Shown here: piece by piece, positions 1 to 18,014 of the stretch | Layout of the letters: each line of letters starts with the position of its first letter | How positions within the stretch are numbered: position 1 is the first letter of the stretch | Assembly: GCA_044356295.1 (NCBI GenBank) | Contig: JBIKWN010000052.1 | Span: 1 to 18,088, forward strand | Length of the DNA stretch: 18,088 nucleotides | Source of the DNA: Bdellovibrionota bacterium | GTDB lineage: Bacteria > Bdellovibrionota_C > UBA2361 > JBIKWN01 | Direction: 5' to 3' | Program-made: the position numbers and the translations under genes | The notes under the pieces: model-generated | The model's database searches: none | Seen by the model: the letters and a program-made list of their open reading frames with translations, nothing else | Told to the model about the DNA's origin: nothing

Positions 1-70
<70 letters not shown>

Positions 71-84
71 TTCCGCGGGGCGGC

Positions 85-113
85 ATTATGTGGAAACTCG
101 GGCTGCATGTAAA
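85..113 (-). promoter_or_regulatory. sigma70-type promoter for the minus-strand tRNA-Thr(GGU)
   Basis: Minus strand: TTTACA (113-108), 17-nt spacer, CATAAT (90-85), then GC-rich discriminator GCCGCCCC, typical of stable-RNA promoters. Confidence 0.75.
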
Positions 114-132
114 CCCACGGAGAGGTCTAAGT

Positions 133-161
133 TTGCTGAATTTTTCGCGAAACCGTAAGAT
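133..161 (+). promoter_or_regulatory. Probable sigma70-type promoter towards tRNA-Thr(UGU)
   Basis: TTGCTG (133-138), 17-nt spacer, TAAGAT (156-161), then ACCGCACC. Back-to-back with the minus-strand promoter. Confidence 0.5.
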
Positions 162-239
162 ACCGCACCAACCTCTGTTATCGAAGCCGTGACAGCAGCA
201 ATCGGCTCATGTATGTACCCTCAATAATTCTTCACTCGC

Positions 240-312
240 GCTGACATAGCTCAACTGGTAGAGCAACTGATTTGTAATCAGTAGGTTATGGGTTCAAGTC
301 CCGTTGTCAGCT
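240..312 (+). tRNA. tRNA-Thr(UGU)
   Basis: GCTGACA-TA-GCTC-AACTGGTA-GAGC-A-ACTGA-TTTGTAA-TCAGT-AGGTT-ATGGG-TTCAAGT-CCCGT-TGTCAGC-T. 73 nt, anticodon TGT, CCA not encoded. Confidence 0.97.
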
Positions 313-365
313 TTGATTTTTCTTCCTTTTTTTCTCCCATCTTCTTTTTCATCCGTATTATTCAC

Positions 366-443
366 CCGTGACCATGACCGTGCGCGTAGGCGTTAGCGAA
401 AAAAATTCTCAGGTCACGCCTAAGCTCACGGTCATGGTCACGG
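366..443. repeat. Hexamer-periodic long inverted repeat (REP-like palindrome), copy A
   Basis: Arms 366-393 (CCGTGACCATGACCGTGCGCGTAGGCGT) and 416-443 are reverse complements with 2 mismatches in 28. Built of CCGTGA-like 6-mers. Related copy at 3660-3736. Confidence 0.9.
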
Positions 444-527
444 AAAGTAATCTAAGATTATTGAATTCCCTAAATCAACCACATCAATTATGTGCCAGAA
501 AAAAGTTGTGATATATTTCACCACAGT

Positions 528-600
<73 letters not shown>

Positions 601-602
601 AA

Positions 603-1418
603 TTAAATTTTTACAGTTTCTTTCTTTTCTAATTCACAATTCTCTGCAGCTGAATAATACCATTCCCCGTCGCTTCCTTGTTTGGTTATTCTTCCAGAGT
701 CTTCAAGAATTTTGATATTCAAATAGAAAGCATTTTCTATTACTTCATCCGAAAAATCATTTCCAAGTTTTTCTAAGAATCCTTCCAATAAATCATACGA
801 TTCAAGTGATTTTTTTTCGCGTAAAACAGCAACTATTGATTCAAGAGGGATTAATGGGTCAGGTTCTATCTCCTCTATTTCTGTTACAGATAGTGACATG
901 GGGCTCTGATTGGGATTTGAAAATTCAAAAATCGTTCTGTCTAACAGCGAAGCACCATCTTGAGAAAGTGTATAAGAAACAAGTCGATTTGAAGAATCAC
1001 TTGGATCAATAGAATAGATCCTCACTAACATTCCCCATCGATACCCAAGATCGATACACTCTCGGAGGTCTTCAAGGGGAAACATATATGCATCCGGATT
1101 ATTACGATGAAATTGTATTTTTGCTTTTTCAAAGATCTCTGATTCTCGGACTTCTTTTATAAAATTATTTTCAATAAAAATATCTTTTAGAAACGCACCA
1201 GTATTTTTTGTAAAGGTCCAATCTTCGCCATTTAATTTATGTGTAAAAAGCTCAATCAGTGCTTCTTCGTAAAATTCTTTTGCACGCTCTTTGCCAAGAG
1301 GAAGTTCTTGATATCGTACGGCTTGATTTTCAATAACTCGCTGCTCACGAATAACAAACGAAAGCTCGTTTAATTCAGAATGCGCCTCTGAGGCCGAATG
1401 TTGATCTGTTCTATCCAC
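603..1418 (-). CDS. Hypothetical protein (271 aa), possible C-terminal winged-helix domain
   Basis: Long ORF with GTG start. Its C-terminal ~70 aa show a three-helix plus beta-hairpin hydrophobic pattern. No family recognised with certainty. Confidence 0.75.
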   Translation of the reverse strand: MDRTDQHSASEAHSELNELSFVIREQRVIENQAVRYQELPLGKERAKEFYEEALIELFTHKLNGEDWTFTKNTGAFLKDIFIENNFIKEVRESEIFEKAKIQFHRNNPDAYMFPLEDLRECIDLGYRWGMLVRIYSIDPSDSSNRLVSYTLSQDGASLLDRTIFEFSNPNQSPMSLSVTEIEEIEPDPLIPLESIVAVLREKKSLESYDLLEGFLEKLGNDFSDEVIENAFYLNIKILEDSGRITKQGSDGEWYYSAAENCELEKKETVKI

Positions 1419-1561
1419 CTTATGTTAGATATGTGGGAATCGGCACAGCGGAGTGCTATTTTTTACTAGAGCGAATATTCGGTTCTTTTTTCTTGAATAT
1501 ATTCAACCATATAATTTTATAAATTTGAGTAAGGCTTCATCTGCGGCTACATTGTTACTCG

Positions 1562-2707
1562 ATGTTTAATCCTCTTGAAGTTCCGCCTTTTTTTGATGTC
1601 TTGGTCCTTCCACCATCAGATTGCCAAGAATCGTTAAGCCGCGCTCAGCGAGTTACTAATGGGAAACTTCTTCTTGTAAAAGATGAACTTATTGCAGAAG
1701 GCAAAGATGATTTTGATGAGCCTGTAAAAATTATGAGTTCATCCATTGCCGAGTACCCCAAAGGAGAGAGACCTAATCTTGATGATGCATTCTTTGAACC
1801 CTTACAGTTAAATTTCAAAAGAGAGATGGCGCTAAAAAATGTAGGTCCTGCCGATGATGTTTTTAACCAAGCGATCGATATACACACAGATGGTCGGATG
1901 ATTTGTAAGACATATAGTTACGGTAGAGATTCCGTTATTAGATTTGAAGGGTTTCATATTGATCACCCTAAAAAAAATCTGCCTATTCCATTCCCTGAAG
2001 ATTTGAATCCAATTTGTTTTCTTCAAAATGGGGATGTGCTTGTATTTCAGGATTTTCGTCAACAAGTAATTCGATTCAATGAAAATTCTGGGCAATGGTG
2101 TAATGTTTCTCCTGAAGGTCAGGAAGTAGTTTTTGGAAATATAGAAGATAGATACGGCTACAAATTTCTTTGTCCTACTACCGAAGAAGCTAATGTTTTT
2201 TTAGTTTCAGCCAATAATCCGAAACATACAGAAATCTCTAATTATTCAAATATCACGGGGCTTTCAGAATCAGGGGTCTTAATTGGGTTAGATAAACAAA
2301 AAAATCCTAGCTATTGGCACGAAAACGGCTCGACAGGACATTTAGCACTTTCGGATTCGATAGGCGACTCTTTTTGCTATCCATCTGTTATAAGCACGAA
2401 TCAAACTCCTCATGGATCTGTTGAAATGATTGTTGGAACTTGTGGAAAGTTGCACCAATCAGCCCAATATCAACCGAATCTATTAGAAGATGTATCATAC
2501 ACGTTTACTCCAAATCATGTTGCTCTTTGGGTAGCTTCTTCTGAAGACTTTGCCCAAGGTGTTTCGCCTGTTGGAGTCGACATTAATGAGCTTTGTATTG
2601 ATTCAGATGAACCAATAGTAGTAGCAACTGGTATGACAAATCAGCTTGATATATTAGCAACGACTTCAAGTGGTGATTCGGCATTACTTGTACGAAGAAT
2701 TTGGTAA
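1562..2707 (+). CDS. Hypothetical protein (381 aa) with divergent HAF-like beta-propeller repeats
   Basis: Long ORF with recurring motifs NQAIDIHTDGRMIC, NPICFLQNGDVLV, NITGLSESGVLIG and VATGMTNQLDILA, resembling the A-x-x-I-N-x-x-G-x-I-V-G repeat. No obvious signal peptide. Confidence 0.7.
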   Translation: MFNPLEVPPFFDVLVLPPSDCQESLSRAQRVTNGKLLLVKDELIAEGKDDFDEPVKIMSSSIAEYPKGERPNLDDAFFEPLQLNFKREMALKNVGPADDVFNQAIDIHTDGRMICKTYSYGRDSVIRFEGFHIDHPKKNLPIPFPEDLNPICFLQNGDVLVFQDFRQQVIRFNENSGQWCNVSPEGQEVVFGNIEDRYGYKFLCPTTEEANVFLVSANNPKHTEISNYSNITGLSESGVLIGLDKQKNPSYWHENGSTGHLALSDSIGDSFCYPSVISTNQTPHGSVEMIVGTCGKLHQSAQYQPNLLEDVSYTFTPNHVALWVASSEDFAQGVSPVGVDINELCIDSDEPIVVATGMTNQLDILATTSSGDSALLVRRIW

Positions 2708-2729
2708 GATATTTTTATATTATCTGCTT

Positions 2730-3560
2730 ATGTTTGATGAAAAAATAAAAATAACCAACTCGCAGGGTACCACAAACAAAGCATTAGCTTACACGCCTGA
2801 TGAACTAAAAATCGAACAGAGTACTTATGTAAATGAACTAGCTCAAGTCGTAACCTACATCCATCGCCCTCTTAATGTTTTCTCTCTTGAAGCCATTCCT
2901 GAGTGGGCGTACCAAGCTGCATCACTTGCATGGAATGATATTCGAGGCGGTAGATTTACTACTGAAATCTTTAAAGCAGAAACTATTCTTATGCAAAATC
3001 TTATAGAGATTGCTAAAGATGGTGACCTGCAGATGTATGATTCGAATGGTAGAATTGATGTTTCAACAATACTCAGCGTATTATCGCAACAGCTTGGATT
3101 TGAAGATTACGTTTCTTATTCACCTTCATTGTTGATTGTGCATGAAGTGTTAGGTTTAGGTAACGTCAGCTACCGAGGAGGAGCAATGGCTTCACAGGGC
3201 GTTGCTGTTGTATCCCTTCATGCGATAGAAAAACTGATATCGGCAGCAAAGAGCAATTCAGATTTTGATAATGCAAATATATTTACAGATGAGCAACTAT
3301 CCACAGAGCTTCTACGAAGGTTAATCCGTCACGAATTAGGACACCTTCATATGTTACCCGATGTCATGAATGGTCCAGTTGTAAAAGAGAAGGGAGCACA
3401 CTGTCCGGGCGAGGCAGTTTGTTGCATGCGTTCAGCAAGTAATGATGAGATTTGGATTGAGCAGATTGGTTCTGAAATTAAACATCAAAATCAGAGTGGT
3501 AATTGTTTTTGTTCTTATTGCTTGGCTCAGCTTGATGCGCTTAGTTTGAGCATTTCATAG
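2730..3560 (+). CDS. Archaemetzincin-like (peptidase M54-like) zinc metalloprotease
   Basis: HELGH zinc motif followed by HC-x4-VCCM and a C-terminal CSYC. Start taken at ATG 2730 (MFDEK) to avoid overlap with the upstream gene. Confidence 0.75.
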   Translation: MFDEKIKITNSQGTTNKALAYTPDELKIEQSTYVNELAQVVTYIHRPLNVFSLEAIPEWAYQAASLAWNDIRGGRFTTEIFKAETILMQNLIEIAKDGDLQMYDSNGRIDVSTILSVLSQQLGFEDYVSYSPSLLIVHEVLGLGNVSYRGGAMASQGVAVVSLHAIEKLISAAKSNSDFDNANIFTDEQLSTELLRRLIRHELGHLHMLPDVMNGPVVKEKGAHCPGEAVCCMRSASNDEIWIEQIGSEIKHQNQSGNCFCSYCLAQLDALSLSIS

Positions 3561-3579
3561 AAGATGAGGGAGGTATGTA

Positions 3580-3596
3580 TTCGATTCCCTCGCCCC
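3580..3596 (+). repeat. 17-bp inverted copy of the tRNA-Trp 3' portion (T-loop to acceptor stem)
   Basis: TTCGATTCCCTCGCCCC at 3580-3596 is the exact reverse complement of 3804-3820. Confidence 0.85.
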
Positions 3597-3637
3597 CAAT
3601 GATTGAATCTAAAAAGCGAGAGCAACGAGCGTGGCCC

Positions 3638-3761
3638 CAATGTCATTAAGTTAAGGATTTTCACCCGTGACCTTGACCGTAGGCGTGAGCGTGACCTGTT
3701 CTTTTTCGTTCACGCCTAAGCTCACGGTCACGGGGATCATGTGCTTAACTTAATGACATTG
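3638..3761. mobile_element. 124-bp non-autonomous MITE with IS4-like ends
   Basis: Perfect 18-bp TIRs CAATGTCATTAAGTTAAG (3638-3655 and 3744-3761) flanked by 11-bp direct repeats GAGCGTGGCCC (3627-3637) and GAGCATGGCCC (3762-3772). No transposase inside. Confidence 0.85.
3660..3736. repeat. Hexamer-periodic palindrome, copy B (inside the MITE)
   Basis: CCGTGA CCTTGA CCGTAG GCGTGA GCGTGA CC ... TCACGCCTAAGCTCACGGTCACGG. Shares the exact 21-mer TCACGCCTAAGCTCACGGTCA and TTCACCCGTGACCnTGACCGT with copy A. Confidence 0.9.
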
Positions 3762-3800
3762 GAGCATGGCCCGGAGCGGCGAGCGCGAAAAAAAAGTATA

Positions 3801-3873
3801 CACGGGGCGAGGGAATCGAACCCCCAACCGACGGATTTGGAATCCGTAACTCTACCAATTGAGCTAGCCCCGT
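3801..3873 (-). tRNA. tRNA-Trp(CCA)
   Basis: Reverse complement reads ACGGGGC-TA-GCTC-AATTGGTA-GAGT-T-ACGGA-TTCCAAA-TCCGT-CGGTT-GGGGG-TTCGATT-CCCTC-GCCCCGT-G. Anticodon CCA, G73 discriminator, 3' CCA not encoded. Confidence 0.96.
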
Positions 3874-3883
3874 ATGTTGGGTA

Positions 3884-3912
3884 AGAATAGCAAGACCAGA
3901 GAGGATCTTCAA
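3884..3912 (-). promoter_or_regulatory. sigma70-type promoter for tRNA-Trp
   Basis: Minus strand: TTGAAG (3912-3907), 17-nt spacer, TATTCT (3889-3884) with an extended -10 TGn, ending 10 nt upstream of the tRNA. Confidence 0.65.
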
Positions 3913-3958
3913 TTTTTGGTTCTTGTGACTTTAAATAGTGCAATTTATGCTCTTTGGT

Positions 3959-4459
3959 ATGATTAAACTGCAAAATATTTTTTTTAGAAGATCTAGGGTT
4001 TTAAGTTTTTTCTCTTCTTTTTTGTTTATTTTGCTTGCATTCGCTGTCATACCATCAGAATCAATAGCACAAACTCTCGGTGTTCTGTGTATGAACTCCT
4101 CCACGAAAACCATTACGGTAGAGAAAGCTTGCACAAAAACTCAAGTAAGATTGTCAGGTGCAAATATGCCTTCAACTCCATTCATTAATTCAAAATGTTA
4201 TACTCAAAAAGGTCAAGCATCTGATGGTTCATATAACGGAAAAGTCGCAGTAGCGCTCTCTTGTCGTACTGGTGATGTTGTCGTTTCTGATAGCTTTGAT
4301 ACTTCTGATGCAACAAGAGCAAATCCAAAACTTTCTTCAAAAACTTTAATTTTTACAGGATCATTGAAAGGGGCTACCGGAGTTCAATTTGAAACTCAAG
4401 GTGAAGCAAATAAATTCTATTCCATATCTGCTACGATACTTTGTTGTCCAGGTACATAA
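3959..4459 (+). CDS. Secreted cysteine-containing hypothetical protein
   Basis: Basic N-terminus, hydrophobic stretch and S-I-A cleavage-like site suggest a signal peptide. Six Cys in the mature part, ending ILCCPGT. Start uncertain (3938, 3947 or 3959). Confidence 0.75.
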   Translation: MIKLQNIFFRRSRVLSFFSSFLFILLAFAVIPSESIAQTLGVLCMNSSTKTITVEKACTKTQVRLSGANMPSTPFINSKCYTQKGQASDGSYNGKVAVALSCRTGDVVVSDSFDTSDATRANPKLSSKTLIFTGSLKGATGVQFETQGEANKFYSISATILCCPGT

Positions 4460-4547
4460 TCATTTTTGAAATAAGGCAAGGATATACTGTTACCTAGAGT
4501 GACGGACACTCCTAGTGCAATTTGTGCGTGATTAAAGTCTGAATATC

Positions 4548-5297
4548 TCACTCATTTACAGCAACTTTTCCCTCTTGACTATGAAGCCAAGAATCAATCT
4601 CTTCTTGGTTACAACTCATCAGAAGTCTATTATTAACATGCTCAATTGCAGCGTAAATTTCAGTATCATCGGTACAAGCAATAGTGAGCGCGATAAGTTG
4701 TTTTTCGAGTTCTTTCAAAAGTCTTATTGCTGACTGAAGTGCTTGACCAGAGATATCTTGAAATGATTGCGCCATGACAACATTGTGATTTGCAAGTTGC
4801 ATAGTATTTGAACGTTCTTTCAATTGATTCAAAAGGCTGAATGCTTCGCCAGGAATCTCTGCTGATGAAGAACGAAGTAAATCTTCAAGATTCTTAAGGT
4901 CGTTTTTTTGATCACGGATAGTAAATGCGTTTTTTTCACAGATTTCTAAAGTGTTATCTGTTGCTTGAAAACTCATCTGGATTACTTCTTCCAGCTTTGT
5001 AGCTGCACGAGGAAGTCCGCCATCTTCAGTTATTTCAAGTGCATTTCGAAAATCTTCTATTAATTTATGGACTGCAGCGTTAATTGAGCTCATTTTTACA
5101 ATGAGTGCATCTTCATCGGTTACACCCAAAGAACGGAGTGACATGACGATTGAGTTAGGCTCGTTATTTTTAATGCCTTCAAGCAGAAGGTACATTGAGG
5201 ATAGAGCAAGTTCTCTTCGTGCATTAAGGGCAGAAGAGAGTCTTTGCATTGATTCGGAGTTAGTTTCTTTCATAGTTAAGATTGCCTTCGGCACCAT
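4548..5297 (-). CDS. cheZ: CheZ-family protein phosphatase
   Basis: LPRAATKLEEVIQMSFQATDNTLEICE helix, catalytic MAQSFQDISGQ (DxxxQ) motif, and C-terminal NQEEIDSWL resembling the CheY-binding peptide. Start 5297 or 5273. Confidence 0.85.
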   Translation of the reverse strand: MVPKAILTMKETNSESMQRLSSALNARRELALSSMYLLLEGIKNNEPNSIVMSLRSLGVTDEDALIVKMSSINAAVHKLIEDFRNALEITEDGGLPRAATKLEEVIQMSFQATDNTLEICEKNAFTIRDQKNDLKNLEDLLRSSSAEIPGEAFSLLNQLKERSNTMQLANHNVVMAQSFQDISGQALQSAIRLLKELEKQLIALTIACTDDTEIYAAIEHVNNRLLMSCNQEEIDSWLHSQEGKVAVNE

Positions 5298-5384
5298 TTT
5301 TTGAATACTTTTCGTTTGGAGTGAAAAAAACGACTAAAAGTCAAAAATCATAACCTCTGGTAATTACTCGTAATCTTGCCTTGT

Positions 5385-5413
5385 TTGATCTACGTACCTG
5401 TTTCTGGTAATTT
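5385..5413 (+). promoter_or_regulatory. Probable promoter of the secE-nusG-rpl-rpo cluster
   Basis: TTGATC (5385-5390), 17-nt spacer, TAATTT (5408-5413) with extended -10 TGn. Confidence 0.55.
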
Positions 5414-5482
5414 TCATGACTCTTCGGTTTTGGGGGAACCCCCTCTAAATAACCGAAAAGTTTAAGCAAACAATCAATTGTT

Positions 5483-5701
5483 ATGACTAACGATCAGAAA
5501 GATTCCGTTAGTTCCGGGCACTTTGGCTCTGGGAACTACTTAACGGACAGCATTGCTGAACTTCGTAAAGTTTCGACTCCAACGAAGCAAGAAGCTATGC
5601 AGGCCACTTGGGTTACGCTGATCATTATTGCATTCATGTCGTTGTGCTTGTTTTTTATGGATTACTTTTTCCATACAGTGGTTTCGTTCTTGGTGTTATA
5701 G
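5483..5701 (+). CDS. secE: Preprotein translocase subunit SecE (single-TM type)
   Basis: ELRKVSTPTKQE matches the ELxKVxWP-like motif, followed by one TM helix. Located before nusG. Confidence 0.93.
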   Translation: MTNDQKDSVSSGHFGSGNYLTDSIAELRKVSTPTKQEAMQATWVTLIIIAFMSLCLFFMDYFFHTVVSFLVL

Positions 5702-5735
5702 ATTTTTTAATTTTGTCTCTTTTTGGTAAAACAAC

Positions 5736-6320
5736 GTGTCAACGTCTGAAGAAACAGTTACAGCACAGCAGGACTCTCCTACTGCAAATCCAAAGCTTGC
5801 GTGGTATGTTGTTCATGCTTATTCAGGATTTGAAGCCAAAGCAAAGCAAACTCTTGAAGAGCGTATAAGACAGTGCTCATTTGCTGATAAATTCGGCGAA
5901 ATACATGTTCCACAAGAAACTGTCGTTGAGCTTGTAAAAGGACAGAAGAAAACTTCAAGTCGTAAATTTTTCCCAAGTTATATCTTAGTTCAGATGGAAC
6001 TTAACGAAGATACTTGGCACCTTGTTAAAGAAACTCCAAAAATCACTGGTTTTGTTGGTGATGCAAAAGATCCTTCACCGATAAGCCTCGAAGAAGTAGA
6101 CAGGATAATGAACCAGGTTCAAGAAGGTTCAGCTTCTCCTCGTTCGAAAATGAGTTTTGAGCACGGTGAAACAGTAAAAGTTATCGATGGTCCGTTTGCA
6201 GAGTTTAGCGGGACAGTTGAAGAAGTTAAGCCTGACAAACAAAAAGTCAAAGTACTTATTAGTATATTTGGTCGTGCAACTCCGGTTGAACTTGATTTTA
6301 TGCAAGTTGAAAAGAGTTAA
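5736..6320 (+). CDS. nusG: Transcription termination/antitermination factor NusG
   Basis: [20 protein letters not shown] and KOW domain [15 protein letters not shown]...[16 protein letters not shown] start. Confidence 0.99.
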
Positions 6321-6351
6321 TTTAATTTTTCAGAATAGATGAGAACGAAGT

Positions 6352-6777
6352 ATGGCAAAAGAGATTACCGCATTAGTAAAATTACAAATTAAAGCAGGAC
6401 AAGCAAATCCAGCTCCTCCGATTGGTCCCGTACTAGGTCAACACGGCGTGAACATTATGGAGTTCTGTAAGCAGTTCAATGCAAGAACTCAAAAAACTAT
6501 GGGAGAAGTTACTCCAGTTGTTCTTACCGTTTACAAAGATAGATCGTTTACTTTTGAAGTTAAAACACCACCGGTGTCATACCTTCTTAAGAAAGCAGCT
6601 AATATCGAGAGCGGATCAAAAGTACCGAACAGAGATAAAGTTGCAGTGATTGCAAAAAGCAAAGTGCAAGAAATTGCTCAGCTTAAGATGCAAGACCTTA
6701 ACGTAAACGATATCGCAGCAGCTATGAAATGTATCGCAGGTACAGCTCGAAGCATGGGCATAGATATTAAAGATTAA
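6352..6777 (+). CDS. rplK: 50S ribosomal protein L11
   Basis: [30 protein letters not shown] and [10 protein letters not shown]. Confidence 0.99.
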
Positions 6778-6812
6778 GTTTTTCAAAAATTCAGAAAAGA
6801 GAGATACAGAAA

Positions 6813-7523
6813 GTGGCACAGTTAGGAAAAAAAACAGGTAAGCGTTTTAAGAAGGTTGCAGCGCTTGTAGATTTTGAAAAGTCATATGCATTAGGTGAAG
6901 CATGTGAAGTTATCGCTAAAACTGCATCAGCAAAATTTGATGAAACAGTTGAAGTGGTTGTTTGTCTTGGTGTTGATCCAAGAAAAGCAGATCAAAACGT
7001 ACGTGGTACAACTGCACTTCCGCATGGACTTGGAAAAAATGTTCGTGTTGCAGTATTTGCAAAAGGTGAAAAAGCTAAAGAAGCTGAAGCCGCTGGCGCA
7101 GATATCGTAGGAGCAGATGACCTAGCAGAAAAAATCAAAGGTGGATTCTTTGACTTTGATACTGTTGTTGCTACACCAGATATGATGGGCCAAGTAGGTA
7201 AAGTAGGTAAATTATTAGGCCCACGTGGTTTAATGCCATCACCTAAAGTTGGAACAGTTACGTTTGATGTAACTGCAACTGTAAAATCAATCAAAGCAGG
7301 TAGAGCAGAGTTTCGTGTTGATAAAGCAGGACTTGTTCACTCAGCTGTTGGAAAAGCTTCTTTTGGAAAAGATAAAATCCTTGAGAATGCCACTGCTCTT
7401 ATCTCAGCTCTTAACAGAGCAAAACCACAAACAAGCAAAGGCGTGTATATCAAGTCTGCTGCTATGTCATTAACTATGGGTCCTGGAGTCAGGCTCGACC
7501 CGTCATCGATCAGAAACGTATAA
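6813..7523 (+). CDS. rplA: 50S ribosomal protein L1
   Basis: [22 protein letters not shown] and [19 protein letters not shown] start. Confidence 0.99.
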
Positions 7524-7541
7524 GTAGGGAACCTAAAGACA

Positions 7542-8090
7542 ATGAACCGCCAAGAAAGACAAGACCAAATTGAATTCCTGGGTAATTGGTACTCAAATGC
7601 TCAAGTAGCACTTTGTGTAGATTACAGAGGATTAACCGTTGATCAGATTACACGCTTTAGAAAAGAGCTCACTAAAATTGGCGCTAAGGGTCAAGTTGTT
7701 AAAAACACCCTTAACGTTAAAGCTATTGATAAATCTTTCTCAAGCTCAAATGCTGAGCAAGTTGCTAAGTATAAGAAACTTTTCAAAGGACCAAGTCTTT
7801 TGATTATTTCAGATGCTGATCCAGTTGCTCCTGCAAAAGTAGTTGCGAAATTTGCAAAAGATTTTCAAGCCCTTCAAATCAAAGGTGCTTGGATGGATGG
7901 TACTTATCTTGATGAAGCAGGTGTTCAGGAATTATCAAGTATGCCAGGTAAACAAGAAGTGCTTGCGCAACTTCTTGCTCTTATCAATACCCCAGCAACT
8001 CAGTTGCTAAGACTTATGAATACTCCAGCAACACAAATGCTGACAGTGCTCGATGGTCACCGCAAAAACTTGGAAGCCAAGGCTGCGTAA
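7542..8090 (+). CDS. rplJ: 50S ribosomal protein L10
   Basis: VDYRGLTVDQ, VVKNTL and LSSMP motifs, in the expected position. Confidence 0.98.
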   Translation: MNRQERQDQIEFLGNWYSNAQVALCVDYRGLTVDQITRFRKELTKIGAKGQVVKNTLNVKAIDKSFSSSNAEQVAKYKKLFKGPSLLIISDADPVAPAKVVAKFAKDFQALQIKGAWMDGTYLDEAGVQELSSMPGKQEVLAQLLALINTPATQLLRLMNTPATQMLTVLDGHRKNLEAKAA

Positions 8091-8129
8091 TTTTTAAATT
8101 TTTATTTTAACCTATTAGGAGTAAACAAA

Positions 8130-8507
8130 ATGAGTGTAAATGCTGAAGAAGTAAAAGAGTTCATCAAAAGTATGTCTTTGATGGAAGCTGCAAAACTAGT
8201 TAAGGCCTTAGAAGAAGAGCTTGGCGTATCCGCTGCTGCTCCTGTTGCTATGGTCGCTGCTGCTGGTGGAGCTGGTGCTGCTGCTGTTGAAGAGCAAACT
8301 GAGTTCACTGTAACTTTAGCTGACGCTGGTGCAGACCGTGTGAAAGTTATTAAAGTTATCAGAGAAATCACAAGCCTAGGGCTGAAAGAAGCTAAGGATC
8401 TTGTTGATGCTGCGCCTAAAGTTGTTAAAGAAGGTGCATCTAAAGCTGACGCTGAGGATATCAAGAAGAAACTTGAAGAAGCTGGCGCTAAAGCTACAGT
8501 TAAGTAA
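8130..8507 (+). CDS. rplL: 50S ribosomal protein L7/L12
   Basis: Ala/Gly hinge, [10 protein letters not shown] and [16 protein letters not shown] Shine-Dalgarno upstream. Confidence 0.99.
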
Positions 8508-8522
8508 TAACTACTTAACAAA

Positions 8523-8544
8523 AGCCTATTATTTTCAATAGGTT
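8523..8544 (+). terminator. Possible weak hairpin after rplL
   Basis: AGCCTATT-ATTTTC-AATAGGTT stem-loop, AT-rich and without a clear U-tract. Confidence 0.3.
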
Positions 8545-8877
8545 GGCTCTGTTTGAGAATCTTTATACCTATCTTTTTATGGCAATGAAAAGGTCGGTTT
8601 TGAACCCTGATTCACTGTTTGCTCCAGTTAAAGAGAACCAAACAGGGCCTAAAAATCTCGAAAGCCCCCAAAGAAGTCTTAATTTTTTGGGATTTCTAGT
8701 GGGCTTTCTTGATATTGGAATAGAATTTGCCTAAACTACTAGGCACTCAACATAAAACTTAAAACTAGACAAGTTATTTTTGTACGTGTTCTTCTCGATT
8801 TGATGTGTTTGCTAAAAAATTAGTTGCACAATCTTTTCAGGGAGCAAAAGTTTCGTTGTCTGTTTGTTCGCGATCGT

Positions 8878-11800
8878 ATGACTTCAAAAATCAAAACCAA
8901 CCTTCGTCTTCGTCGTAGCTTTTCAAAAATTAAAGAGGTAGCAGAGATTCCTAACCTCATAGGTATTCAAAAGAAATCCTATGACCGGTTTCTCCAAGCG
9001 CATATCGATCCTGATAAAAGGGAAGAGATAGGGCTACAAAAAGTATTCAAATCAATTTTTCCAATTAAGGACTACAACAATACTGCAACGCTTGAGTATG
9101 TATCCTATACGCTTGGAATACCTAAGTATGATCAAGACGAGTGTCGCGATCGTGGAATGACTTGGGCAGCTCCACTTCGTGTAACGATTCAACTTGTTCT
9201 TTGGGATGTCAATCCTGATACAGGTGCTCGTACATTAAACGCTCTTAAAGAAGACGTTGTGTACTTTGGTGAAATACCTTTGATGACAGATAAAGGTACA
9301 TTCATCATCAATGGTACAGAGCGTGTAATCGTATCTCAGCTTCACCGATCGCCTGGTGTGTTCTTTGATCACGATGACGGGAAAAGTCACGTATCTGGAA
9401 AACTTTTGTATAACTCAAGAATTATCCCTTACCGTGGTTCGTGGATTGATTTTGAGTTTGATATCAAAGATATCCTTCATGCTCGAATCGATAGAAGAAG
9501 AAAAATCAACGCAACTGTTGTACTTCGTGCACTTGGTTTGGACGGCGAAGAAATTCTTAACACATATTACAAGAGTGATGAAGTCACTTTTGGTAAGCGT
9601 GGTCTTGTTACTAAGAAATTCGCACCAGAGCAACTCGAAGGACAAAAAGCATTCAAAGAAATTAAAGTTGGTCAGAAAGTTCTTGCAAAACAAGGCGGAA
9701 AGATTAACCGAGCTGCAATTCGTCGCATGAAAGAAGCAGAGATGGATCTCATCGAGATCGATCCTGATTCTGTTCCTGGAATGTGTGCTTCTGAAACTAT
9801 TATCCGTGCAGATGAAGAAGTTGCGCATCCAAAGACTGGTGAAATTCTTGCAGAAGCAGGAGAGATTCTTATTGGTTGGGAAGCAATTAAAGAAAGACTT
9901 GCTGGATCGATTACTGCTTTAAATGAGAATGATGGTAAAAACATCTGTTCGAAATTTACTGTTATCGTTGACGCTGGTGAAGAACTTACTGCTGATAAAG
10001 TTAACTCAAAAGGTGAAGTTGTTGAGCAAGGAACTATTTCGCTTGTTCAAGATCTTAAAATTGAAACTGTAAAAGTTCTTTATTTAGACGATCACCACAT
10101 TGGCGATGCACTATGGAAAACTCTTGTTACTGACAAGATGTCACCAGAGCGTGAAGATATCTATTCACGATTAGCGAAGAAACCTACATCTGATTCGTTG
10201 ATCGAGATCTACCGCAGACTTCGTCCAGGAGATCCTCCTCGACCAGAAACTGCAGCAGCAACATTTAAAAATCTTTTCTTTAACGCAGATAGATACGATC
10301 TATCAGATATTGGACGATACAAACTTAATCATAAGTTGTACCACGCCCATGGTAAGGAAGCGCCAAGCCTTGAGCAGGGTGTCCTTTCTCAATCTGATAT
10401 CGTTGAAACTGTTCGTTACTTACTAGAACTTCGTAACTCATCTGATGCAGTGCGACACTCTACTGATGATATCGATCACCTTGGTAACCGACGTGTACGT
10501 GCGGTTGGTGAGCTTATCGAAAATCAGTACAGAGTTGGACTTGTACGTATGGAGCGCGCTGTTCGTGAACGTATGGGTATGCAAGATATTGAGACTCTTG
10601 TTCCGCAAGACCTCATTAACTACAAACCTGCTTCTGCTGTTATCAAAGAATTTTTTGGTTCATCGCAACTTTCTCAGTTCATGGATCAGACAAACCCACT
10701 TTCAGAAATTACGCACAAGCGACGTCTTTCAGCCTTAGGCCCAGGCGGTTTAACAAGAGATCGTGCAGGATTTGAAGTACGAGACGTAAATACGACTCAC
10801 TACGGAAGAATCTGTCCGATTGAAACTCCTGAAGGTCCAAACATTGGTCTTATCTCATCACTTGCAGTTTATGCTCGTGTTAATGAGTTTGGATTCCTTG
10901 AAACACCTTACAGAGTTATAGATTCACAAAACCGTGTAACTGATGACATTGTTTTCTTATCTGCACTTGAAGAAGAAAGAGAAACTATTGCTCCTGCAAT
11001 GGATTGCCTTGCTTCTGACGGATCATTTAGAAACGACTCTGTCCCAGCACGTAAGAATGGTGAGTATATCGCTGCTCCTCAAGCCGACGTTACAAAGATG
11101 GATGTAAGTCCGAAGCAAACTGTTTCAGTTGCTGCGTCACTTATCCCATTCCTTGAAAACGACGATGCGAACAGAGCATTGATGGGATCGAACATGCAAC
11201 GACAAGCTGTGCCTTGCTTGAGAACTATGGCACCACTTGTTGGTACTGGAATGGAAGGCATTGTTGCTAGAGATTCTGGTGCAACAGTTGTTGCTAAGCG
11301 TTCTGGAAAAATTATGTCAGTAGATTCTGAGCGTATTGTAATGCGTGCAGATAAGTTGACTGATGATCCACTTGATACTGGTGTAGATATCTATAACTTG
11401 ATCAAGTACAGACGTTCAAACCAAAACACTTGTATTACACAGAAACCAATCGTTCGCCCTGGTGAGAAAGTAAAAGCGCAGGAAGTTATTGCTGATGGCC
11501 CATCAACTGAGATGGCTGAGTTAGCACTTGGACAAAACTGCCTTGTAGCTTTCATGCCGTGGAATGGATACAACTTCGAGGATTCAATCTTGATCTCTGA
11601 GAAGCTTGTTCAAAGCGATGTCTTTACTTCAATCCACATTGAAGAGTTTGAATGTATCGCCCGCGATACCAAACTTGGTAAAGAAGAAATCACTCGTGAT
11701 ATTCCAAACATTGGAGAGGAAGCACTTAAGAACCTTGATGAATCTGGAATTATCCGTATCGGTGCAGAAGTTAAGCCTGGTGATATCCTCGTTGGTAAAA

Positions 11801-13332
11801 TTACTCCGAAAAGTGAAACTCAACTTTCACCTGAAGAGAAGTTACTACGAGCAATCTTCGGCGAAAAAGCTGGTGAAGTTCGTGATACATCATTAAAACT
11901 TCCTCCTGGAGTTGAAGGTACTATTATATCTGCTCAAGTATTCTCTCGTAAGGGTACTGAGAAAGATGAGCGTATGCTTGCAATTGAAAAGAGAGAAGTT
12001 TCCCGTGTTGAACAGGATCACAAAGATGAAATTAAAATTCTTCGTGAAGCTGCTCTTACCGAGATTAATGAACTCCTTGTTGGTAAAACTACAACAGCAA
12101 GACTTGTCGACGATAAACGTGCTCAGTTGATTGCGAAAGATACAGTGCTAACTGAAGAAATTCTTGAAGGTGTTCCATTCGAATACATCAGAGATATCCA
12201 AGTTGGTGATGAAGAAATTCAAGAATCACTGAACAAAGTTGTTGTTCGAACTGGTCAGCTTATCAACAATAAGCGTGCATTTATTCAAGAGAAAGTGAAG
12301 CGTTTGAAAGAAGGAGACGAACTTGCTCCTGGTGTGATTAAGATGGTTAAAGTCTTTATCGCTATTAAACGTAAAATCCAAGTAGGTGATAAACTTGCTG
12401 GACGTCACGGTAACAAAGGGGTTCTCTCCAAAGTTGTACCTGTAGAAGACATGCCTCACCTAGAAGATGGAACACCAGTTGATATGGTGCTCAATCCTCT
12501 TGGGGTACCTTCGCGGATGAACGTTGGTCAGATTCTGGAAACTCACCTTGGATGGGCTGCGTATATGTCAGGTAGACGTGTTCGCGATGCACTTGAAGAA
12601 GTCATGGATCCAACAACTGGCGAGTTCCACCCTGAAGCGTCACTTCAAGCTAGAAAAGATGCTGCTACTAAAATTAAGTCTATCTTCACTTCAGTTTTGA
12701 ATGATGAGAAATGCTTGAGCAATATTACTAAGTTTAATGACGAAGATATTTTTGCTTTTGCTCGACGTGAAGTATGCGGTGTCCATTTTGCAACACCAGT
12801 ATTTGATGCTGCAAAACATGAAGAGATTAGAAATCTTCTTACATTTAACGGTGTAAGTGATTCTGGTCAGGTTCAACTTGTTGATGGACGGACAGGCGAA
12901 ACTTTCAAAGAGAAAACTACTGTTGGTGTCATGTACATGCTGAAACTCGACCACTTGGTCGATGACAAAATTCACGCACGTTCAATTGGCCCATACAGTC
13001 TTGTTACTCAACAACCGCTTGGTGGTAAGGCTCAGTTCGGAGGTCAAAGACTTGGAGAGATGGAAGTATGGGCGCTTGAAGCATACGGTGCTGCTTACAC
13101 TCTACAAGAATTCCTCACTGTGAAGTCAGATGACGTTGCAGGTCGAACCAGAATGTACGAGTCGATTGTGAAAGGTGAACATGTTCTTGAGCCAGGACTT
13201 CCTGAATCGTTCAACGTTATGATGAACGAACTTAAGTCGCTTGGTCTCGATATTCAGTTAGTTGAAGAAAATCCTGAAGAGGATTTCCATGCTGACTCAG
13301 TAACTTCTAATAGCGCGGATATGCCGGCATAG
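8878..13332 (+). CDS. rpoB: DNA-directed RNA polymerase subunit beta
   Basis: [47 protein letters not shown] and [13 protein letters not shown]. Start taken at ATG 8878 ([15 protein letters not shown]), 1484 aa. Confidence 0.99.
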
Positions 13333-13346
13333 TCGTTACAAATTGT

Positions 13347-13370
13347 AGGCCCAAAGAATTCTTTGGGCCT
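13347..13370. terminator. Perfect 24-bp palindrome between rpoB and rpoC (hairpin)
   Basis: AGGCCCAAAGAATTCTTTGGGCCT, followed by GTGTTAATT, which is only a poor U-tract. Confidence 0.5.
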
Positions 13371-13426
13371 GTGTTAATTGTATAAAAGTACACATTAGTT
13401 TTTAAATTAGAATCAAGGATACTGGA

Positions 13427-16400
13427 ATGGACGATCTATTTAGCTTGTTCGAGAAGCCGAAAAATCCAATTAAGTTCAACGCTTTAAAAATCTCATTAGC
13501 TAGTGCTGATGTTATAAAGAGTTGGTCTCATGGCGAAGTTACTAAGCCTGAGACAATTAACTATCGTACGTTAAAACCAGAACGTGATGGATTGTTCTGC
13601 GCAAAAATATTCGGTCCTGTTAAGGATTACGAATGTATTTGTGGAAAATACAAAAGACTTCGTCACCGTGGTGTTGTGTGCGAAAAGTGCGGCGTAGAAG
13701 TTATCCAATCAAAAGTCCGTCGTGAACGCCTTGGGCATATTGAGCTTGCAGCTCCAGTTGCACATATTTGGTTTTTAAAATCTCTTCCAAGCCGAATTGG
13801 TGCAGTTATTGATATTACACTTCGTGATCTTGAAAAGGTTCTTTACTTCGAAAGCTACATCGTCACTGATGCTGGTGATTGTGAAGATCTTGAAGAAGGG
13901 CAACTTCTTACTGAAAAAGAATTCAGAACTGCACGTGAACAGTACGGTGCAAAATTTGAAGCAGGTATGGGCGCGGATACGATCCTACAAATGCTCAAAG
14001 AGATTGATGTTCATAAGCTTGTTCCACAGATTCGTGAAGAGCTTAAAAACGTTACTTCTGAGGCTAAAAAGAAAAAACTTTCAAAAAGACTAAAAGTTCT
14101 TAACTCATTCCTTATCAGCGGTAATAAGCCGCAAGATATGATCATGACAGTTGTTCCTGTCATACCACCAGATCTTCGTCCGCTTGTTCCACTTGATGGT
14201 GGTCGTTTTGCTACTTCAGATCTGAATGATCTATATCGACGTGTTATTAACCGTAACAACAGACTTCGTCGTCTGATTGAACTTGCAGCACCGGATATTA
14301 TTATCCGTAACGAAAAAAGAATGCTTCAAGAATCTGTTGATGCACTTTTTGATAACGGTCGTCGCGGAAGAACTATTACTGGTCCAAATAAGCGCCCATT
14401 AAAATCTCTTTCAGATATGTTGAAAGGTAAAGGTGGACGTTTCCGACAAAACCTTCTTGGTAAACGTGTAGATTATTCAGGACGTTCAGTTATCGTTGTT
14501 GGTCCAGAATTAAGACTCCACCAGTGTGGACTTCCAAAGAAAATGGCGCTCGAACTCTTTAAGCCATTTATCTATAACAAACTCGAAGAGCGAGGCTACG
14601 TCACAACCATTAAATCTGCGAAGAAAATGGTTGAAAAAGAGAAGCCAGTTGTTTGGGATATCCTTGATGAAGTTATTAAAGAGCACCCAGTACTATTAAA
14701 CCGTGCTCCGACACTTCACCGTTTAGGTATCCAAGCTTTTGAACCACTTCTTATCGAAGGTAAAGCTATCCAACTTCATCCACTCGTTTGTACAGCGTTT
14801 AACGCTGACTTCGACGGAGATCAGATGGCGGTTCACGTTCCATTATCAATCGAAGCTCAGGTTGAGTCTCGCGTATTGATGATGTCTACGAACAATATTC
14901 TTTCACCAGCTCATGGTAAGCCAATCATCGTTCCTTCACAGGATATCGTTCTTGGTCTTTACTATATGACTCGTGAGCGACCATATGTTCGTGGTGAGAA
15001 TGCTATTTTCTCAAACATGGATGAAGTTTCTATCGCATGGCAACAAGATGAAGTTCATCTTCAAGCAAAAATTAAATGCCGAATCGACGGTAAATTAGAA
15101 GATACTACCGTTGGTAGAGTGCTTCTTGCTTACCATGCACCAAAGAATGTCCTTCCATTCAAAGCTTTCAACAAAGTAATGAAGAAGAAAGAGATCTCTG
15201 GTCTTATCGATGAAGCATTCCGTGTTGCTGGAAATAAAGCGACAGTTCTTCTTGCGGATAGCATTAAGAATATCGGTTACCGTTTCGCAACAATTGCTGG
15301 TATTTCAATCGGCATTAACGATATGGCGATTCCTCCATCTAAGATTAAACTTCTTGGTGATGCAGATAAAAAAGTTGCTGAAATTGATGGCCAATATCAA
15401 GAAGGTCTTATCACTTCAGGTGAGCGATACAACAAAGTAATCGATATCTGGTCAGACGTTGGTGATAAAATTGCTGATGATATGATGCAGGATATCTCTT
15501 CTGCAGAGTATAAGAGCGAAACTGGTGAGACTAAAAAAGGTCCTTCATTTAACTCAATTTACATCATGGCTGACTCTGGTGCTCGAGGATCGAGCCAACA
15601 GATTCGACAGCTTGCTGGAATGAGAGGACTGATGGCAAAACCTGATGGATCCATCATCGAAGAGCCTATTAAGGCAAATCTTCGTGAAGGTCTTTCGGTT
15701 CTTCAGTACTTCGTATCAACGCACGGTGCACGTAAAGGTCTTGCAGATACAGCATTAAAAACAGCGAACTCTGGTTATTTAACTCGACGACTTGTTGACG
15801 TTGCTCAAGATTCAATTGTTACTTCATACGATTGCGGAACAAACGAAGGTCTTGAAATCTCTGCACTTGTTGAAGGTGGGGAAGAGATCGAATCATTAAC
15901 GAACAGAATCTTAGGACGTGTTGCTGCTGAGGACATTAGCGACCCAATTACGAACGAAGTTCTTGTTAGAAGAAACGAAGAAATAGATGAAGAAAAAGCT
16001 GCTGCAATTACTAATTGCGGTATCGATATGGTCTTTATCAGATCAGCACTGACTTGTGAGTCAGAGCGTGGTGTTTGTTCACTCTGTTATGGTCGTGATC
16101 TTGCTCGTGGACATATGGTTAATCTTGGTGAAGCAGTTGGAGTTATTGCTGCTCAATCAATCGGTGAACCTGGAACACAGTTAACAATGAGAACGTTCCA
16201 CATCGGAGGTGCTGCGGTTGGACGAGGAGAACAAAGTTCTCTTGAAGCTCGCTTTGCAGGTAAAGTTAGATATGAAAACGGACGTATCGTTCGTCGACGT
16301 GATGGTTCACAAGTAATGATGGCTCGTAAGAGCGAACTCGTTGTTGTTGATGCTATTGATGGTCGCGAAAAAGAGCGTCACTCAATTGTATACGGTTGCA

Positions 16401-17551
16401 GACTTAAAGTTGAAGAAGGTGCAGAAGTTAAGCCTGGTCAACTTATGGCTGAATGGGATCCGTTTACTATTCCAATTCTTTCCGATGTTGCAGGTCGTGT
16501 TGAATGGCAAGACCTCAATGAAAACACCATCGAAGAAAAATCGGATGAGCGCACAGGATTTGTTGAGAAAGAAATCATCCAATCTCGTGACCGCGCAGCT
16601 GATCTTCGTCCTCGTATCATAGTATACGGAGAAAATGGTGAGAACCGCGTTTACAACTTACCTACTGGTGTTCGTGTTACTGTTGAACATAACACTGATA
16701 TCGATGCAGGTGATGTTATCGCTAAACGTGAAAGAGCTTCTACTAAAACGAAAGATATTACAGGGGGTCTACCTCGCGTTGTTGAGCTATTCGAAGCTCG
16801 TAAACCAAAAGATCCTGCAGTTGTATCTGATGTTGATGGTACTGTTGATTTCGGTGAAGATTCTCGTGGTAAGAGAAAAATCGTTGTTACTCCAGAATAC
16901 GGAGAGCCTCGTGAGTATCTTGTTGCGAAAACAAAACACGTATCTGTTCAGAAAGGTGATCGAGTTAGAGCTGGTGAATCACTGACAGATGGCGCAATCA
17001 ATCCACATGATATTCTTCGTATTGAAGGTGTTAAAGCACTTGCTTCATACCTTACAAACGAAGTGCAAGAAATCTACCGACTACAAGGTGTGCGTATCAA
17101 TGATAAACACATCGAAGTAATTGTTCGTCAGATGTTAAAACGTGTGAAGATTGCTGATTTTGGTGATACTCACTTCCTTGTCGGTGACTCTGTTGAGCGA
17201 TGGAGAGTAACACTTGAAAATCAAAAGATTGTTGCTACTGGTGGTAAACCTGCTATCTATGAGCCGCTTCTTTTGGGTATTACAAAAGCTGCTCTTACAA
17301 CTGATTCGTTTATCTCGGCTGCTTCTTTCCAAGAAACTACTAAGGTTCTTACCGAAGCTGCAGTGTCTGGAAGAGTTGATACGCTTCGTGGACTCAAAGA
17401 GAACGTTATCATGGGTCGTTTGATTCCTGCTGGTTCTGGTGTTTCTGAATATGTAAACCGTCAGATATTTGTTGATGGTGAAGAAGAAGCACCTCAAGCA
17501 GAGTATAAAATCAGTCAAACTTCTCTTGAAAGCTTGGCAGGACTTTTATAA
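13427..17551 (+). CDS. rpoC: DNA-directed RNA polymerase subunit beta'
   Basis: KPETINYRT, Zn-finger CICGKYK...CEKC, catalytic NADFDGD and [12 protein letters not shown]. Confidence 0.99.
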
Positions 17552-17560
17552 TAACTCGCA

Positions 17561-17983
17561 GTGGTCAAGTTTCGGATCGAAGAGGGCGAGACTGACCAAG
17601 TAACGTACACTGGAAAACGTGAACGTCGAAAGACCGTTCTCCTTAAAGTAGGGGAACGGTCTATCTCTAAAAAAGCTCTACAACTTGGATTAATCCTTAT
17701 TGTCTGTCAGGTTCTTGATGGCTTCCTCACTTATATTGGGCTCTCTTTAATGGGTGTTCATATGGAAGGGAATTCATTCCTCAGAAATTTGATGCATTAT
17801 TATGGTCAAGCACCTGTCCTTTTTGCAGCAAAATTAACATCGATTCTTTTTATTGCTCTGCTTACTCTTCAATCACATACTCGACGCTGGATTCGACCAG
17901 TTATCGTTGTGTTAATTATTATTTACCTCTGTCTTGCTGTGATTCCTTGGACATACCTTATTAGTCAAAAACTTGCTGGTTAA
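17561..17983 (+). CDS. DUF5658-like small membrane protein
   Basis: Three hydrophobic helices with the LDGFLTYIGL...G...EGNS motif (D-x-x-LT ... E-x-N). Starts 9 nt after rpoC. Confidence 0.75.
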   Translation: MVKFRIEEGETDQVTYTGKRERRKTVLLKVGERSISKKALQLGLILIVCQVLDGFLTYIGLSLMGVHMEGNSFLRNLMHYYGQAPVLFAAKLTSILFIALLTLQSHTRRWIRPVIVVLIIIYLCLAVIPWTYLISQKLAG

Positions 17984-18014
17984 CATTTCATATCATAATT
18001 GTCGTTTTTAATTT

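Follow-up and report, generated by a model that had tools for sequence, protein, structure and literature searches.

Truncated tRNA-tailored hairpin unit and MITE insertion as the probable origin of a nested palindrome at a tRNA-Trp gene of a lake Bdellovibrionota bacterium

The closest described counterparts of the arrangement reported here are the tRNA-linked repeats (TLRs) of Escherichia coli K-12. According to the passages of PMC8144298 that deal with them, 22 TLRs occur at ten loci; each is defined by 18-19 bp that exactly repeat the 3' terminus of an upstream tRNA or rRNA, and no function is known for them. The same passages trace the 178-bp tyrT/tyrV repeats and the RtT RNA (Rfam RF00391) to Egan & Landy (1978) and Rudd (1999). 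Our own dissection of the K-12 tyrV unit (178 bp) gave a 59-nt spacer, an inverted 10-mer of tRNA-Tyr (end of the T-loop, T-stem and acceptor), a structured middle and a direct 19-mer. The TLR linked to the 5S gene of rrnB has a 13-nt direct copy and lacks any inverted copy of at least 7 nt, so not every TLR has the inverted arm. Here, we describe an inverted copy of a tRNA 3' end, denoted a', beside the tRNA-Trp gene in an 18,088-nt stretch of DNA (the window; contig JBIKWN010000052.1 of assembly GCA_044356295.1, positions 1 to 18,088) from a Bdellovibrionota bacterium. What stands at this gene is very probably one truncated hairpin unit tailored to the tRNA, together with one miniature inverted-repeat transposable element (MITE), left by two separate events.

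The window belongs to the assembly denoted G000 (2.96 Mb in 128 contigs, 94% complete). It was compared with G002, from the same genus, and with G010 and G015, from other families of the same order; Myxococcota-type loci near nusG served as the outgroup. Counts of units in the relatives, which are mutually related, refer to the loci fetched from them (G002, 28 of ~29 tRNAs; G010, 28-30 of 36; G015, 36 of 45). The features at tRNA-Trp are as follows.

3561-3579, no strand: breakpoint region; homology to G002 ends at 3579/3580, the T-loop edge of a'
3580-3596, minus strand: a', inverted copy of positions 54-70 of tRNA-Trp without a mismatch, probably the surviving 5' arm of a truncated hairpin unit
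3597-3626, minus strand: distal trailer, the remainder of the GC-rich module and a TTTTTAGATT-type spacer directly before a'
3627-3637, no strand: left copy of the target-site duplication (TSD), GAGCGTGGCCC, 11 bp
3638-3761, no strand: 124-bp MITE with perfect terminal inverted repeats (TIRs, 18/18 nt) at 3638-3655 and 3744-3761 and no open reading frame (ORF)
3664-3734, no strand: built-in hexamer-repeat palindrome with arms at 3664-3691 and 3707-3734 (28 nt, 86% complementary)
3762-3772, no strand: right copy of the TSD, GAGCATGGCCC, 11 bp
3773-3799, minus strand: proximal trailer, a T8 run 4 nt past the tRNA and then the start of the GC-rich module (TTTTCGCGCT..CGCTCCGG)
3800-3874, minus strand: tRNA-Trp(CCA), predicted by ARAGORN; Rfam RF00005 scores 64.7 bits at 3801-3873
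3804-3820, minus strand: segment a, the partner of a' in tRNA-Trp (T-loop, 3' strand of the T-stem and 5 nt of the acceptor 3' strand)

The preliminary description of this stretch had taken the outermost layer of a three-layer palindrome to be the 3' 17-mer of tRNA-Trp and its inverted copy. The repeat finder returned exactly this pair, 3580-3596 and 3804-3820, 17 nt long and 100% complementary, with 207 nt between the arms. The chance expectation of such a 17-mer is ~2e-6 (75-nt tRNA against a 300-nt flank), and the sequence is present at these two sites only in the 2.96-Mb assembly. The inverted copy lies 203 nt downstream of the gene, or 79 nt once the MITE and one copy of the TSD are taken out. 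The T8 run that follows the gene, seen on the plus strand as an A-run at 3789-3796, has no separate hairpin. The trailer module TTTTCGCGCT..CGCTCCGG.. is also present behind tRNA-Gln, Asn, His, Met and Phe. In a fuller form, TTTTCGCGCT.GGCGCTCCGG.CAGGGGC..GCCCCT.., it makes up a first family of trailers (Gln, Asn, His, Met, Phe and Trp), and a second family, with a CCC-TTCG-GGG hairpin and GTTTGCC..GGCAAAC, follows Gly-gcc, Gly-tcc, Ile and Val-tac. Besides 3773-3799 and 3597-3626 of the window, sites of these trailers in G000 are on contigs C2 (from 2163), C25, C40, C59 and C119.

Behind the identical tRNA-Trp of G002, three tandem spacers of ~58 nt, homologous to the GCGAG-rich spacer of the window, are followed by an a' of 20 nt (perfect), a perfect 8-bp hairpin (h1), an A-rich linker, a direct copy of the tRNA end that is 7 nt long here (a1) and a decayed second one (a2). 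No MITE intervenes between this a' and the gene. Homology between the two genomes stops at the T-loop edge of a', from which we conclude that the unit in the window is truncated to its spacer and 17 nt of a'. Distal to the breakpoint, ~3 kb of G000-specific DNA (the 603-3579 block) occupies the place of the far half of the unit. A search for direct copies of the 3' ends of tRNA-Trp and tRNA-Thr(ggt) (score >=10) yielded no second copy anywhere in the 18-kb window. Contigs from independent sequencing runs support the order of the pieces: those denoted X2 (another sample, another study) match 3535-3665 and 3733-3867 with 0 differences, and X5 matches 3694-3844, so that both the a'-to-MITE and the MITE-to-tRNA joins are reproduced outside the source sample. 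No single one of these contigs runs from a' through the tRNA, and the interior of the MITE is fragmented in them. In its present state, a' is probably inert. Its plausible activities are limited to pairing with the 3' half of the tRNA in rare read-through transcripts, or to a hairpin or cruciform at the convergent gene junction.

The second event is an ordinary MITE. The 18-bp TIRs and the 11-bp duplication noticed at the outset were both recovered, the two TSD copies being identical at 10/11 positions. When 3634-3765 was compared with G000 by BLAST, 76 loci were found, comprising 21 full-length copies (>=110/132 nt), 21 copies of the inner palindrome only and 34 partial ones. The full-length copies have the TIR in common, and five of the others are flanked by perfect TSDs of 10-11 bp (on contigs C80, C57, C107, C61 and C104). 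In the homologous spacer of G002, the target sequence is single and uninterrupted, i.e., an empty site. The TSD and this empty site identify the MITE as a genuine secondary insertion. The preliminary description had offered successive insertions of small elements into one another as one of its readings, and for the middle layer this is correct. It does not extend to the innermost one: the alignments span the inner palindrome in 21/21 full-length copies, and the hexamer hairpin is therefore a part of the MITE rather than a separate, third insertion here. The same palindrome, ~70 nt long, is found alone in ~21 copies, one of them at 372-443 of the window, between the two tRNA-Thr genes. Among 54 occurrences of the TIR in the 128-contig assembly, 16 form pairs 100-139 nt apart, and no pair is more than 160 nt apart; thus, the assembly holds no autonomous parent of the MITE.

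Inverted copies like a' recur at other tRNA genes, each matching its own tRNA. For all 36 tRNAs of G000, the last 30 nt of the gene were aligned in inverted orientation with its own masked 300-nt downstream flank, with a score of 14 or higher as the threshold. Five of the 36 have an inverted self-copy (Arg-tct, Met, Pro-ggg, Trp and Arg-cct), and tRNA-Cys, with a score of 13, falls just below the threshold as a sixth case. At the same threshold, mismatched pairs of tRNA and flank gave 3 hits in 1260, while the own 3' end against the upstream flank and the 5' part of the tRNA against the downstream flank both gave 0/36. The excess of own-flank copies over mismatched ones (5/36 vs 3/1260) shows that a tRNA-associated element system exists. 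The preliminary description had raised both the idea of such a system and that of inverted self-copies behind other tRNA genes, and in these respects it was right; its suggestion that the system is of an undescribed kind was not, since E. coli tyrT RtT has the same layout. In the relatives, inverted self-copies were found at 6/28 tRNAs in G002, 11/28 in G010 (where 13/28 have a direct copy) and 1/36 in G015; the Myxococcota-type loci had none (0/195). The occupied tRNAs of G002 are Val-tac, Asp, Trp, Cys, Pro-tgg and Leu-taa, of which only Trp and Cys are occupied in G000 as well, and its tRNAs for Arg-tct, Met and Pro-ggg lack a unit. The Arg-tct unit is absent from both G001 and G002, whose intergenic DNA is too diverged for a precise alignment of empty and filled sites.

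The tRNA genes of this lineage are often trailed by such units, which are small, rich in hairpins and devoid of protein genes. Reading outward from the gene, an intact unit consists of a trailer (S), a', an optional hairpin h1, a linker, the direct copy a1, often a second hairpin h2, a2, and then S again. In the best-preserved units, a' is 15-21 nt long, S often includes a terminator-like hairpin and the tip of h2 is often C-GAA-G. The a1 segment comprises the T-loop and the 3' strand of the T-stem, and a2 runs to the last base of the tRNA. The direct copy measures 14 nt in the intact sister unit on contig C12, 15-16 nt in G002 and 16-17 nt in G010. RNAfold predicted a three-way junction for the units, with a' pairing with both a1 and a2. 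The A-rich linker, AAAACAACA..GG, is common to units at different tRNAs in G000, G002 and G010; its form in G000 is AAAACAACAAGG or a close variant. Units may also occur in tandem, as at Arg-tct, where the whole unit of ~109 nt is present twice. In a search for AAAACAACAAGG with at most one mismatch, 45 matches were obtained, and an arm matching the flank was seen only in the 3 that are linked to a tRNA. A looser linker pattern gave 525 matches, 23 of them with a stem of at least 8 nt and only 2, near tRNAs, that were convincing, in a search crude enough to miss known units. In the independently decayed arms of two units, that of tRNA-Cys on C12 of G000 and that of tRNA-Trp at locus L014, the sole mismatch in the T-loop is G for T opposite A58; with two cases only, this may be coincidence.

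Units are also found as mirror images at the 5' ends of tRNA genes (3/36 in G000, 4/28 in G002, 12/30 in G010, 0/36 in G015 and 1/166 of the Myxococcota loci). Those of G000 are at C74:25515-25700 (tRNA-Val-gac), on C76 upstream of 33607 and on C110 upstream of 1496; those of G010 are at loci L161-L186, and nine tRNAs of this genome have units on both sides. In a 5' unit, the first 14-32 nt of the tRNA are repeated in direct orientation, followed by the linker in reverse complement (e.g., GTGTTGTTTTG or CCCTGTTGTTTTG), a hairpin with a loop complementary to GGAG, the D-arm region in inverted orientation and a duplicated leader. Read outward, the 5' and 3' units are the same element, and the polarity thus follows the end of the gene and not the direction of transcription. 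The minimum free energies of 17 unit cores added up to -540.6 (sense) and -550.3 (antisense), and G-U pairs were rare on both strands. T-runs or terminator-like hairpins usually separate the tRNA from a'; a terminator scan of 3300-4200 found no terminator-like site on either strand. Both the mirror images at 5' ends and the stems, which are nearly perfect in Watson-Crick pairing, speak for an origin at the level of DNA rather than for a switch in the precursor RNA, and we put it at nearly an even chance that the units are DNA-level structures.

Comparison of related units shows which parts are kept. In the two tandem Pro-tgg units of G002, the stretch from a' through the linker to a1 is identical at 51/53 positions and the next segment at 22/29, and hardly any alignment is possible between the proximal spacers. 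Between the Cys units of G000 and G002, h1 and h2 show three compensatory pair changes, and the a' and a1 of these units track the T-loop difference between the tRNA-Cys genes of the two genomes. Such upkeep could be explained either by selection on the hairpin, as DNA or RNA, or by renewed copying of the tRNA gene.

As a whole, the explanation that we consider likely, with considerable room for doubt, is that DNA-level units which copy gene ends, and which would not be regulators acting as RNA, are formed at the borders of tRNA genes, and that the window contains one such unit, truncated, and the MITE. The end of the tRNA gene would be copied by a copying or recombination process at the gene border, and the units might then multiply through recombination between direct copies. 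In every unit the arms correspond to the resident tRNA, a point in favour of copying on the spot over movement from one tRNA to another; re-copying or gene conversion would keep the arms matched. Units would eventually be truncated, and at tRNA-Trp the distal half was very probably lost in a rearrangement with its breakpoint at the T-loop edge of a'. Later, the MITE inserted into S of the truncated unit, with duplication of 11 bp. More tentatively, and with the balance somewhat against it, a' may belong to an unrecognised, protein-less class of DNA hairpins that copy gene ends, occur at both ends of tRNA genes with outward polarity and include the E. coli TLRs as their enterobacterial members. 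The stems of this putative class would be formed by an inverted and a direct copy of the last 10-30 nt of the gene, and its shared core might be the GGAG-looped hairpin with the AAAACAACA..GG linker, a definition that we hold just as tentatively.

Several observations weigh against this explanation. The constant linker is accounted for by no simple repair model. No recombinase was found among 14 ORFs at five other unit-bearing tRNAs or among the ORFs of the window, and no excised form, empty/filled pair or donor copy of a unit was seen. Selection on RNA would be an equally good reason for the conservation of the linker and for the compensatory changes in h1 and h2. The full read-through RNA is predicted to prefer a:a' pairing by ~8 kcal/mol, and the perfect conservation of a' in two congeners could mean that it has a function here.

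We also searched for enzymes that might make the units. G000 has three tyrosine recombinase genes (PF00589), none of them near a unit. IS110-type transposases (PF02371; 1 in G000, 2 in G001 and 0 in G002) and reverse transcriptases (PF00078; a single fragment, in G000, and none in the other two) show no relation to unit load, and the numbers of Y1 transposases (PF01797; 4, 5, 2, 6 and 5 in G000, G002, G010, G015 and G003, respectively) are unrelated to unit abundance. The IS110-type copy in G000 lies beside a different repeat, and the single T-loop-like 9-mer there is within chance. This repeat is ~70 nt long (..ACATTTTTAGTAACGCGAAGGTCGCGAAGTACGCGAAGG) and has ~100 copies, many in inverted pairs and many at the ends of contigs (e.g., C12:44920-44990 and C23:1-71 of G000); one copy directly adjoins the IS110-family element (C22:21050-22352), the only one in G000. 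Fold-back priming at the T-arm, tandem-inversion duplication and staggered-cut models were considered and set aside, each leaving the constant linker unexplained. Retro-copying of the tRNA was rejected too, two G-for-T changes opposite A58 being all that spoke for it.

Of the other explanations considered, one takes the units to be folded single-strand recombination cassettes, i.e., tiny elements of single-stranded DNA with an a'/a stem that mimics a tRNA target, inserted and stacked behind or in front of tRNA genes by a recombinase acting in trans. In the window, a' would then be half of a folded site and the breakpoint at the T-loop edge a product of recombination. We regard both the general proposal and its application to the window as rather unlikely. 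By analogy, the order of site, cargo, inverted site, loop and site, the tandem arrays and the regenerated distal site would fit the topology of hairpin attachment (att) sites. The h2 hairpin is placed at a fixed junction within the direct copy, often between short overlapping repeats, and several of its tips are C-GAA-G triloops, which form very stable DNA mini-hairpins. The homology between G000 and G002 breaks exactly at the T-loop edge of a', and G000 does have three PF00589 recombinases. However, arms that without exception fit the resident tRNA, with not one chimera seen, would not be expected of cassettes moving between different tRNAs. Neither a unit-linked recombinase nor a circular or excised form was observed, and the missing correlation with Y1 transposases also speaks against cassettes of this type.

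The preliminary description had proposed that a read-through precursor of tRNA-Trp could fold in such a way that the antisense 17-mer competes with cloverleaf folding or 3' processing. Stated fully, this would be a cis-antisense RNA switch in which a' pairs with the T-arm and the 3' strand of the acceptor, blocks the cloverleaf or 3' processing and thereby tunes or quality-controls tRNA-Trp. Thermodynamically, such pairing is possible: for the 305-nt read-through RNA, a minimum free energy of -139.8 kcal/mol was calculated, with all 17 a:a' pairs at p>=0.96, compared to -132.0 kcal/mol with the cloverleaf forced. The switch would also be consistent with the perfect state of a' in both G000 (17 nt) and G002 (20 nt) despite differing flanks, and with several units (on C23, C38 and C63) in which a' is perfect and the direct copy has decayed. 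However, the T8 run starts 4 nt past the tRNA and terminator-like hairpins precede a' in other units, while the tRNA would fold ~200 nt ahead of the transcription of a', which in intact units has a local partner in a1/a2. Where the element is reversed, in front of tRNA genes, it is the complement of the linker that would be present in the sense RNA, and the 17 unit cores show no asymmetry between sense and antisense folding. Among the RNA sequencing runs listed, only 4-6% of the sampled words of the stretch are shared. We consider the switch improbable. Resolution of the nested palindrome into a unit and a MITE also means that no special regulatory device need be assumed for the single tRNA-Trp gene.

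Still less probable is an integration scar. In this view, the 603-3579 block and the three orphan ORFs in it would be an island that had entered an att site of the tRNA type, with a' as a remnant of the att core. The block is missing from the G002 locus and sits between tRNA-Thr(ggt) and tRNA-Trp, and its right border is the T-loop edge of a'; the T-loop is the crossover region of the integrases that target it. Against this stand the orientation of a', opposite to that of its tRNA where an att duplication would be direct, and the lack of a second copy (score >=10) of either the Trp or the Thr-ggt 3' end in the window. The three ORFs match no integrase, and G002 has a' and the same spacer without the block. 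Finally, chance similarity or an assembly artefact (a palindrome mis-joined through the repeated MITE) can practically be dismissed, the multi-copy nature of the MITE and the lack of an independent contig from a' to the tRNA in one piece being outweighed by the chance expectation given above, by the reproduction of both unique-to-MITE joins with 0 differences and by the a' beside the MITE-free tRNA-Trp of G002.

The order of genes in the window is tRNA-Thr(tgt), tRNA-Thr(ggt), three ORFs of no known family, tRNA-Trp, a 173-aa ORF, a CheZ-like gene and nusG-rplKAJL-rpoBC. A partial tRNA, cut by the contig edge at 1-70 on the minus strand (Rfam, 60.4 bits), resembles tRNA-Thr(ggt). There is no tuf gene between the tRNA-Thr genes and tRNA-Trp. 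The tRNA-Trp gene points away from nusG-rplKAJL-rpoBC, with the 173-aa ORF and the CheZ-like gene in between, and is inverted in G002 as well. It is the sole tRNA-Trp detected in the assembly, for which 36 tRNAs are listed. CCA is not encoded by this gene (it ends ..CCCCGTGT and is followed by ATAC), while the otherwise identical gene of G002 ends ..CCCCGTGCCA; an encoded CCA is found in a minority of G000 tRNAs. The ORFs at 603-3560 encode 271, 381 and 296 aa and are lacking from the same locus of G002. None of them gave a match of meaningful E-value to a family in Pfam, NCBIfam or PHROGs. The last of them is convergent with tRNA-Trp:

2670-3560, plus strand: 296-aa ORF of no known family, stopping 20 nt before a'; part of the 603-3560 block

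A HELGH motif followed by a Cys-rich tail in the 296-aa protein is presumably reminiscent of archaemetzincin-type zinc peptidases. The best relatives of the NusG protein (93%, 80% and 75% identity and lower) come from metagenome-assembled genomes of lake Bdellovibrionota, and the DNA of the window is best matched in lake-water metagenomes. The host is an uncultured environmental (lake) bacterium of the Bdellovibrionota.

The apparent three-layer palindrome thus reduces to a truncated unit and a MITE of the ordinary kind. Its wider interest lies in the units, which are tailored to their tRNAs at up to ~40% of the examined tRNA genes of G010, often on both sides, and which occupy different tRNAs even in congeners. 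Their layout is the same as that of E. coli tyrT RtT, a TLR of long-unexplained origin and function. What is new is that the units are symmetric about tRNA genes, and the mirror symmetry of the 5' and 3' forms provides a testable argument that they are made at the level of DNA. If a class of gene-end-copying hairpins does exist, it would imply either a machinery acting in trans or a specific replication template-switch process that copies the ends of host genes. For the search for such a mechanism, the unit-rich lake Bdellovibrionota offer many natural replicates.

Several known systems share parts of this design. The attL and attR sites of tyrosine integrases resemble the units in the copied block, which extends from the T-loop toward the tRNA's 3' end, and the direct copies are similar to att duplications; a T-loop sublocation class of integrase att sites in tRNA genes was reportedly defined by Williams in 2002. 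Unlike such sites, the units have no integrase or island, are 90-180 nt long and include an inverted copy, a linker and 5' forms, and the window has the inverted copy only. In integron attC sites and in the attP(+) hairpin of the CTX phage, which is used by XerCD, the topology of site, cargo, inverted site, loop and site, the tandem stacking and the near-perfect stems are similar, as a matter of resemblance only. Here, however, no conserved core triplet or box was identified, there is no linked integrase and the arms are tailored to each tRNA. The inner element conforms to MITEs in general in its TIRs and TSD, its length of 124 bp, its non-coding interior, its many copies and, for the element in the window, the empty site in a relative. 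It differs from them in lacking an autonomous partner with the same TIRs in the assembly and in its interior palindrome of hexamer arrays, which is also found alone.

The comparison with the TLRs is the closest. In full-text literature searches, inverted copies of tRNA ends downstream of bacterial tRNA genes were nowhere described; on TLRs, the searches led only to PMC8144298 and to a bioRxiv passage about rttR. The Rfam model of RtT (RF00391) gave no match in the window at the gathering score and none at E<=1 in 12 loci of the clade, compared to 133-137 bits for the four E. coli copies. A common design of the clade units and the tyrT-type TLR is evident, and homology in sequence or structure is not detectable. 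The units here differ from TLRs in their longer inverted arm (14-23 nt), in their lineage-specific A-rich linker and in the mirror-image units at 5' ends; the relic in the window lacks the direct copy by which TLRs are defined. Like TLRs, the intact units lie behind tRNA genes, sometimes in tandem, and finish with a direct repeat of the tRNA 3' end, and the CCC-GAA-GGG hairpin that precedes the direct copy in E. coli has its likeness in the h2 hairpin of the clade units.

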